NCBI GenBank assembly: GCA_964016885.1
Contig: OZ024762.1
Coordinates: 6,200,001 to 6,264,000 of the forward strand
Source: Eledone cirrhosa
Taxonomy: Eukaryota
DNA length: 64,000 nucleotides
Direction: 5' to 3'
The position numbers and the translations under genes are program-made. Shown here in pieces: positions 40,878 through 43,630 of the stretch. The notes under the pieces were generated by a model. It was not told where the DNA came from, ran no database searches, and saw only the letters and a list, made by a program, of their open reading frames with translations. Position 1 is the stretch's first letter. Each line of letters begins with the position of its first letter.

Positions 40878-41069
40878 GTGCCAAGTTCATGATATTGGTG
40901 ACCCAGGAGAGGTTTACAACCAAGTGATGCAGATTGTAGTCGACCTCGGTAACTGTGGAGTTATCCATGGAGATTTTAATGAATTCAATCTGATGATAAA
41001 TGATGACAGCAAAATCACCATGATTGATTTTCCTCAAATGGTGTCAGTTTCTCACTACAACGCTGAATG
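40878..41069 (+). CDS. RIOK2: RIOK2 exon 7 (catalytic and metal-binding loops)
   Basis: gtccag|CQVHDIGD...[10 protein letters not shown]...[15 protein letters not shown](W)|gtatgt; 192 nt. Confidence 0.95.
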
Positions 41070-41096
41070 GTATGTCACCTTTCTATGTCTTTATAA

Positions 41097-43630
41097 CCAT
41101 TCCATCAAAGGTATGATACCATTCCATGAATGGTATGTCACCTTTCCATCAAAGGTATGATACCATTCCATGAATGGTATGTCACCTTTCCATCAAAGGT
41201 ATGTCACCATTCCATCAAATGTATGTCACCTTTCCATTAATGGTATGACACATTTCCATCAATGGTATGACAAGCTTCCATCAATGGTATGTCATCATTC
41301 CATCAATGGTATGACAACCTTCCATCAATGGTATGTCACCATTCCATTAATGGTATGACAAGCTTCCATCAATGGTATGTCACCATTCCATCAATGGTAT
41401 GTCACCATTCCATCAATGGTATGTCACCATTCCATCAATGGTATGACACCATTCCATTAATGGTATGACAAGCTTCCATCAATGGTATGACACCATTCCA
41501 TTAATGGTATGACAAGCTTCCATCAATGGTATGTCACCATTCCATCAATGGTATGTCACCATTCCATCAATGGTATGTCACCATTCCATCAATGGTATGA
41601 CACCATTCCATTAATGGTATGACAACCTTCCATCAATGGTATGTCACCATTCCATCAATGGTATGTCACCATTCCATCAATGGTATGACAACCTTCCATC
41701 AATGGTATGTCACCATTCCATCAATGGTATGACAAGCTTCCATCAATGGTATGTCACCTTTCCATCAATGGTATGACACATTTCCATCAATGGTATGACA
41801 AGCTTCCATCAAAGGTATGTCACCATTCCATCAATGGTATGTCACCATTCCATTAATGGTATGACAACCTTCCATCAATGGTATGACAAGCTTCCATCAA
41901 TGGTATGTCACCATTCCATCAATGGTATGTCACCATTCCATCAATGGTATGTCACCATTCCATTAATGGTATGTCACCATTCCATCAATGGTATGTCACC
42001 ATTCCATCAATGGTATGTCACCATTCCATTAATGGTATGTCACCATTCCATCAATGGTATGTCACCATTCCATCAATGGTATGACAACCTTCCATCAATG
42101 GTATGACAAGCTTCCATCAATGGTATGTCACCATTCCATCAATGGTATGTCACCATTCCATCAATGGTATGACAACCTTCCATCAATGGTATGACAACCT
42201 TCCATCAATGGTATGACAAGCTTCCATCAATGGTATGTCACCATTCCATTAATGGTATGTCACCATTCCATCAATGGTATGTCACCATTCCATCAATGGT
42301 ATGTCACCATTCCATTAATGGTATGTCACCATTCCATCAATGGTATGTCACCATTCCATCAATGGTATGACAACCTTCCATCAATGGTATGACAACCTTC
42401 CATCAATGGTATGTCACCATTCCATCAATGGTATGTCACCATTCCATTAATGGTATGTCACCATTCCATTAATGGTATGACAACCTTCCATCAATGGTAT
42501 GTCACCATTCCATCAATGGTATGTCACCATTCCATTAATGGTATGTCACCATTCCATTAATGGTATGTCACCATTCCATCAATGGTATGACAACCTTCCA
42601 TCAATGGTATGACAACCTTCCATCAATGGTATGACAACCTTCCATCAATGGTATGTCACCATTCCATTAATGGTATGACAACCTTCCATCAATGGTATGA
42701 CACCATTCCATTAATGGTATGACAACCTTCCATCAATGGTATGACAACCTTCCATCAATGGTATGTCACCATTCCATTAATGGTATGACAACCTTCCATC
42801 AATGGTATGTCACCATTCCATCAATGGTATGTCACCATTCCATTAATGGTATGTCACCATTCCATCAATGGTATGACAACCTTCCATCAATGGTATGTCA
42901 CCATTCCATCAATGGTATGTCACCATTCCATTAATGGTATGTCACCATTCCATCAATGGTATGTCACCATTCCATTAATGGTATGACAACCTTCCATCAA
43001 TGGTATGTCACCATTCCATCAATGGTATGTCACCATTCCATTAATGGTATGTCACCATTCCATTAATGGTATGACAACCTTCCATCAATGGTATGTCACC
43101 ATTCCATCAATGGTATGTCACCATTCCATTAATGGTATGTCACCATTCCATCAATGGTATGTCACCATTCCATTAATGGTATGTCACCATTCCATCAATG
43201 GTATGTCACCATTCCATTAATGGTATGACAACCTTCCATCAATGGTATGTCACCATTCCATCAATGGTATGACAACCTTCCATCAATGGTATGTCACCAT
43301 TCCATTAATGGTATGACAACCTTCCATCAATGGTATGTCACCATTCCATCAATGGTATGTCACCATTCCATTAATGGTATGACAACCTTCCATCAATGGT
43401 ATGTCACCATTCCATTAATGGTATGTCACCATTCCATCAATGGTATGTCACCATTCCATTAATGGTATGTCACCATTCCATCAATGGTATGTCACCATTC
43501 CATCAATGGTATGACAACCTTCCATCAATCATATGTCACCTTTCCATCAACATTATGACAACCTTCCATCAATGGTATGTCACCATTCCATTAATGGTAT
43601 GACATCTTTCCATTAATGGTATGACACCTT
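41097..43630. repeat. 22-bp minisatellite (~115 copies) in RIOK2 intron 7
   Basis: aatggtatgtcaccattccat(c/t) and variants aatggtatgacaa(c/g)cttccatc. Confidence 0.98.

Follow-up and report, generated by a model that had tools for sequence, protein, structure and literature searches.

Introduction

Repeats that span a splice donor are already known from human F7, CBS, IFI6 and ABCA7 and from amphioxus genes, and the array in intron 7 of RIOK2 described here is a large molluscan example. Intron 7 of human F7 contains a 37-bp VNTR whose first unit holds the last four exon bases, and only the most upstream of the identical donors is reported to be used (Borensztajn et al. 2006, PMC1557585). The next donor takes over once the upstream one is mutated, and the authors describe finding no structure that masks the copies (PMC1557585). 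The same text summarises minisatellites of IFI6 (6-16) intron 2, CBS intron 13, LMNB2 and PDGF in which the donor is repeated 10-25 times downstream. The two nearest pseudo-sites are used as well in IFI6 and CBS, and in LMNB2 and PDGF splicing is confined to the true donor (PMC1557585). The 25-bp VNTR of ABCA7 intron 18 starts at the donor GT and ranges from 12 to about 427 units; one unit is retained at times, array length tracks exon skipping, and use of a downstream copy leads to a premature stop (De Roeck et al. 2018, PMC5954066). The amphioxus "mirages" of Adh3 and the globin genes are minisatellite-like duplications over exon-intron boundaries that leave regular splicing undisturbed (Ebner et al. 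2010, PMC3087553). A literature search, with most subscription papers outside its coverage, found no paper on a donor-spanning repeat in an octopod or on repeats in RIOK2 introns.

F7 and RIOK2 share a first unit made of the last four exon bases and the start of the intron; in RIOK2 it begins at 41066 and spans the authentic exon-intron boundary, the exon ending at 41069. The donor is reiterated in tandem in the downstream intron of both genes, and a spliced RIOK2 contig uses the most upstream site. The two differ in that F7 is a mammalian gene with 5-9 copies whereas the molluscan array has 114, in that the RIOK2 unit, a quasi-palindrome, was apparently reduced from 41 to 22 bp, and in that the RIOK2 pseudo-sites are predicted from sequence. 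ABCA7 resembles RIOK2 in an array that begins at the donor, in a size range that covers the RIOK2 array and in the premature stop that follows from use of a downstream copy. In contrast to RIOK2, its unit opens with the GT and includes no exon bases, and its one-unit retention is not seen in the RIOK2 contig. LMNB2 and PDGF are like the RIOK2 contig in using the true donor only, and IFI6 and CBS differ from it by their use of pseudo-sites. The mirages share with RIOK2 an invertebrate host, a homogenised core, divergent edge units and presence in two species (Adh3), but the globin units are 150-160 bp in 3-6 copies, unlike the 22-bp unit of RIOK2 with its 114 copies and its traceable 41-to-22 bp deletion. 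In RIOK2 the successive steps in the formation of the unit can be traced, and two diverged species have the array in common.

Results and Discussion

RIOK2 exon 7 lies between two minisatellites

The window is the whole 64,000-nucleotide stretch of DNA that was analysed, and all positions refer to it. RIOK2 was mapped to the forward strand as ten coding exons (33073..47792) using tblastn with the Octopus vulgaris and Argonauta hians proteins, junction contexts and the Pfam RIO1 domain. This map bears out the sequence-only reading, which had called the gene RIOK2 and the exon preceding the array its seventh. That exon (40878..41069, 192 nt, forward strand) carries the HGDFNEFN and DFPQ kinase motifs, falls in Pfam RIO1, and is 86% identical to O. 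vulgaris RIOK2 and 84% identical to A. hians RIOK2. Judged by its sequence, the host of the window is an octopod. Exon 6 (38004..38092) was placed by tblastn and junction contexts and exon 8 (44302..44394, acceptor AG at 44300-44301) by tblastn, both on the same strand. The authentic exon 7 donor is the GTATGT at 41070..41075. Its position had been read correctly from the letters: tblastn ends the exon at 41069 with the GT at 41070, and the junction is confirmed by a spliced contig. The tetranucleotide GTAT opens both intron 7 (41070-41073) and exon 8 (44302-44305), and because of this short direct repeat read mappers may misplace the junction by up to 4 nt.

Tandem Repeats Finder (TRF) detected eight minisatellites in the window with a period of at least 22 bp and at least five copies. 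One of them is a 25-bp unit repeated 104 times (38241..40845), which occupies intron 6 and stops 32 nt short of the exon 7 acceptor. Its unit has a 10-bp palindromic core, is unrelated to the intron 7 unit and has no other copy within the window. Exon 7 is therefore flanked on both sides by 2.6-kb arrays. Pairing between the 25-bp and 22-bp arrays was considered and set aside, since its predicted energy of -11.8 kcal/mol is weaker than the -17.1 kcal/mol of the 22-bp array's own fold. The idea that all local minisatellites are palindromic was also rejected, as only 2 of 8 beat shuffled sequence. Intron 5 contains a 24-bp minisatellite of eight copies (37678-37869) with a 6-bp inverted repeat, reached by 4% of shuffles, and this array lies off the splice sites.

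Structure of the 22-bp array

The 22-bp minisatellite extends over 41066..43636 on the forward strand, as defined by TRF, site counts and the contigs of run X2 described below; the TRF call of the 22-bp period itself covers 41096-43635. There are 114 GTATG[T/A] sites in 41060-43640, namely the true donor and 113 extra sites, or decoys (69 GTATGT and 44 GTATGA), in 12 distinct donor/stem types. The earlier estimate of about 115 donor copies is close to this count. The three commonest units are present in 37, 25 and 24 copies and make up 86 of the 113, and 66 of the 113 decoys have the 9-mer of the true donor. The dominant unit, with its AATGGT/ACCATT inverted repeat, matches its earlier description. 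The units were also correctly described as copies of the exon/intron junction, but the array does not start just downstream of the donor: it begins at 41066 with a first unit of 41 bp.

Two exact 20-nt copies of the true donor were located by sequence comparison on the forward strand. The first, at +63 (41127..41146, GT at 41133), is the only decoy in frame, and the second is at +107 (41171..41190). Any donor from +107 on includes the in-frame TGA at 41158..41160 (forward strand). At the other end, a terminal copy (43615..43640, forward strand) runs four bases beyond the 22-bp period and has 23 of its 26 positions identical to the founder. The array thus has a homogenised core and divergent, founder-like first and last copies, which is the pattern of the amphioxus mirages. 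The first units (41107-41194) show paired changes in another stem register, with ACCATT followed by AATGGT and ACCTTT followed by AAAGGT. These paired changes count as one event, duplicated as a 44-bp block.

Origin of the unit

The founder unit is a 41-bp segment across the exon 7/intron 7 junction (41066..41106, forward strand), identified by sequence comparison. It includes the last 4 exon bases, the coding AATG, and 37 intron bases. Removal of the 19 bp between the ACC at 41077 and the ACC at 41096 converts the founder exactly into the dominant 22-mer. No copy of the 22-bp unit was detected elsewhere in the window with up to 5 mismatches allowed. The exact 41-to-22 bp derivation, together with the start of the array in a second species, supports the proposal of the sequence-only reading that the array arose from the gene's own donor. 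The array was likely born by a 41-bp duplication across the junction, and the 22-mer by a microhomology deletion.

The proposed history has three steps. The last 4 exon and 37 intron bases would first have been duplicated, and founder-like copies remain at both ends of the array. Recombination between the ACC repeats 19 bp apart would then have produced the 22-mer; here the identity is observed and the event is reconstructed. The unit would finally have expanded and been homogenised by slippage or unequal exchange, before the split from the second species, and the inverted repeat may have aided expansion by acting at the DNA level. The deletion would have placed the AATGGT of the donor beside an ACCATT that was already in the intron, 25 nt from its start. 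On this account the perfect stem is a by-product of the 19-bp deletion, and selection is not needed to explain it. The chance that one of eight founders covers one of ten donors is about 5% per such window, which is a rough, within-window estimate.

The most upstream donor is used in a spliced contig

Splicing of exon 7 was followed in run X1, which was taken as RNA solely because its contig is spliced, the run type not being on record. The 1771-nt contig joins exons 6, 7 and 8 with the junction 41069|44302. It contains 40878-41073 without differences, and its loose ends correspond to 38063-38092 in exon 6 and 44306-44335 in exon 8. The most upstream donor was used in the one X1 contig obtained over 40821-41170. 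No X1 contig was found for the donors at +41, +63 and +85, which are the only three decoys in that stretch, and contigs drop rare variants; the +107 decoy lies just outside it. The exon 7-exon 8 junction check suggested by the sequence-only reading therefore returns the true donor, although it is based on one contig and may have missed minor use of +41, +63 and +85. The spliced contig also supports the earlier view that RIOK2 tolerates about 100 decoy donors.

Translation shows what use of the decoys would cost. The sites at +41 and +85 shift the frame, and +63 adds 21 residues in frame. A premature stop is predicted for 112 of the 113 decoys; the first 11 were translated and the rest were assigned from the position of the TGA at 41158.

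The reading we favor, and consider likely to be right, is that the array is a donor-spanning intronic minisatellite, formed by a 41-bp duplication and then a 19-bp deletion, in which the upstream donor is chosen and the copies are not hidden by hairpins. Splicing would take the most upstream donor, as in the one contig, by the mechanism known from the F7 experiments. Exon definition and co-transcriptional recognition would commit the transcript to the first donor, and later copies would be ignored. Rare use of other copies would lead to the premature stops predicted for nearly all of them, and these transcripts would be cleared by nonsense-mediated decay. With wrong choices stopped and cleared in this way, the array would be nearly neutral. 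By analogy, positional choice is the most likely account of the silent copies in a mollusc; the F7 rule was demonstrated in mammalian cells, not in molluscs. Exact donor copies with and without the stem sit in one intron, which makes RIOK2 intron 7 a natural test bed for "most upstream donor wins" outside mammals.

Predicted hairpins do not clearly set the decoys apart from the true donor

The sequence-only reading had offered a different account of tolerance, in which the inverted repeat buries the decoys; such masking would explain both why the array is tolerated and why the unit is retained. Hairpins are reportedly able to attenuate a donor. The stem described in that reading is present in 66 of the 113 decoys, so many copies do carry the hairpin, but it occurs in 0 of the first 10, which are best placed to compete. 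If either of the two registers is allowed, 94 of the 113 have a perfect stem. The stem accompanies 62 of the 69 GTATGT decoys as against 4 of the 44 GTATGA decoys, and this association appeared to favor masking. When each of the 12 distinct types is counted once, the proportions become 1 of 5 versus 1 of 7 (p = 1), and the apparent association is therefore pseudo-replication. The palindromic character of the unit also spoke for masking: the 6-bp stem of the dominant unit was attained by 1.3% of 300 base-shuffled units, making the unit more palindromic than 98.7% of them. This was one of eight arrays tested, and the result is weak after correction. The 19-bp deletion already explains the stem.

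The true donor was said to escape because its ACCTTT breaks the stem. This was not confirmed. The true donor is itself predicted to fold into a 6-bp hairpin that contains a single U-U mismatch. At 37 °C its energy is -3.8 kcal/mol and that of the dominant unit is -4.3 kcal/mol, and at 20 °C the two are -6.89 and -6.88 kcal/mol, respectively. In a 101-nt fold, the true donor pairs with the second unit over 9 bp. The exact copies at +63 and +107, which include the ACCTTT, are without a perfect stem. Folding the units, which had been suggested as a check, thus gives a dominant unit that is not clearly more stable than the true donor.

Predicted accessibility was compared in longer contexts. Under W80/L40 folding, one of the 113 decoys was more open than the true donor, which was itself more open than the other 112. 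This result favors masking, but the gap disappeared when the windows were lengthened or more upstream sequence was included. With 80 nt upstream, the decoys that equaled or exceeded the true donor in openness numbered 98, 48, 5, 50 and 106 of 113 at 10, 15, 25, 40 and 60 nt of intron, which means that at four of the five lengths 48-106 decoys were as open as the true donor. When the donor 9-mer was held fixed, 50 of 400 shuffles (12.5%) were as masked and 26.5% folded as stably, and 21.8% of 500 shuffles were as masked on emergence. The masking does not beat these shuffles. In the same measure, the working donors of RIOK2 introns 2, 4 and 8 are predicted to be only 0.06-0.10 unpaired, and predicted pairing at this level therefore does not stop use. 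A kinetic version, in which the copies are born masked, was tried and not adopted: with 60 nt upstream the true donor reached an unpaired value of 0.6 once 15-25 nt of intron were present, and with 80 nt upstream the effect was confined to one of five lengths.

Self-masking of the decoys is not upheld by these comparisons, with stemless proximal copies, a true donor about as stable as the copies and pairing within the range of shuffles. Predicted masking is not peculiar to the copies and does not exceed chance, although it may add a little. As the explanation of the array we regard it as improbable, even with the nearly unchanged unit in the second species counted in its favor.

Use of proximal copies

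The splicing dial, also raised by the sequence-only reading, is slightly less probable: splicing would occur at proximal copies at a rate that is low, depends on length or is regulated, so that the +63 isoform and the stop-containing forms tune RIOK2 in the manner of ABCA7. The +63 site lends itself to this role as an exact 20-nt donor copy that keeps the frame. Donor strength was measured as U1 duplex energy. Predicted U1 pairing of the common units is -4.2 to -5.3 kcal/mol, and that of the gene's other donors is -3.4 to -7.9 kcal/mol. The sites at +41, +85 and +129 begin with AAG/GT and are predicted to pair as well or better (-5.7 and -6.8 versus -5.3 kcal/mol). ABCA7, IFI6 and CBS are precedents for such use, and the array start is kept in the second species. 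Against this stand the X1 results, which gave no contig for +41, +63 or +85, contigs showing presence and not absence. In a different species, O. vulgaris, a published study of nervous tissue places RIOK2 with the genes of most stable expression, which counts against tuning if the array is present there (PMC10230085).

Use of +63 (41133) would insert 21 residues after the DFPQ motif. They would end in HEW just before YFNRD and mimic the native AEW; none were seen in X1. RIO kinases are not known to have the usual activation loop after the DFPQ motif.

The array start is shared with a second species

A second species, organism B (run X5, from a separate study), provides a 551-nt contig that covers exon 7 and continues into the same array start. 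Exon 7 of organism B has 22 listed differences from this species, 18 silent and 4 replacement; 18 of 59 third codon positions and 7 of 19 fourfold sites differ. The array start of organism B contains an extra 22+19 unit, returns to the founder register and continues in 22-bp units, an arrangement that differs from that of this species. The common start indicates that the array predates the split of the two species. In the loose end of the contig, 29 of 30 letters are found exactly in the array described here, these 30 letters coming from one contig. A loose end of an organism B contig has letters similar to the 3' edge of the 25-bp array of intron 6.

In organism B the start of the intron carries 3 differences over 22 listed positions (at most 11 of 53). 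Its conservation is not significant when compared with fourfold or third-position sites (p 0.14-0.28) and is significant when compared with Nei-Gojobori site counts (p 0.003-0.004). Nei-Gojobori counts overstate divergence under transition bias, and excess conservation of the intron start was rejected as significant against these counts only and not against fourfold or third positions.

The stasis of the unit across species, seen in 30 letters of one contig, appears to exceed what neutral turnover readily gives and is less well explained by a nearly neutral array. It bears on a further proposal, that the array is an old, selected octopod splicing element in which the copies fold shut, the true donor is briefly open during transcription, and array length or the +63 site tunes the dose or form of RIOK2, a kinase of ribosome maturation. 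This proposal cites a 22-mer almost unchanged between species with about 30% third-position difference. We hold it to be unlikely, on a par with low-level use of the proximal copies. If selection were found to act on the unit, RIOK2 would offer an uncommon instance in which a splice-site repeat is retained as a regulatory element. On the favored account of a nearly neutral repeat with positional donor choice, persistence across species is the only, and a mild, surprise of the array.

Copy number and remaining explanations

The array was compared with contigs from run X2, which is possibly the sample behind the window itself. X2 contigs of 314, 60, 44 and 44 nt agree in length, place and depth (~1x, 2x, 1x and 1x) with the unitigs that a simulation from the window predicts for the array start. 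For the dominant unit, a dimer contig reaches 22.9x the depth of the flank, and the window predicts 26.8x. Four of eight runs were used in all, of which the RAD run X6 contributed 0 reads. The 59-nt, 111-deep contig of X2 has no 59-nt counterpart among the simulated unitigs, and the array core is matched roughly.

That the unit is a dispersed satellite that resembles a donor by chance and was inserted at the junction is very unlikely. The genome is rich in minisatellites, quasi-palindromic units also occur off donors (the 24-mer at 37678), and the unit search covered the window and not the whole genome. Against insertion, the unit contains the coding AATG and can be obtained exactly from the 41-bp founder, the X2 depth fits a single locus, and the window has no other copy. 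Less probable still is a U1 sink, also raised by the sequence-only reading, in which the transcript titrates U1 snRNP: there are 113 donor-like sites per pre-mRNA, but their predicted strength is moderate and does not fall outside that of the other donors in the gene, U1 is very abundant and the intron of one housekeeping gene would be short-lived. An assembly artefact, which the sequence-only reading had named as a way for the array to be unreal, has next to no probability: no contig spans the whole array, but X2 contigs reproduce its start structure and, through the dimer depth, its approximate copy number, and the array start is also present in the second species from a separate study.

Other features

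In the moth Phthorimaea operculella, the annotated RIOK2 has three copies of the segment equivalent to exon 7, all of which end at one common junction. This is possibly an independent tandem duplication at the exon end or an artefact of the gene model. Two further genes were observed on the forward strand of the window. A single 786-codon open frame at 58136-60496, apparently intronless, encodes DnaJ and thioredoxin domains and is presumably DNAJC16-like. A two-exon rhodopsin-family GPCR (7tm_1) is located at 4122-4559 and 11999-12724.
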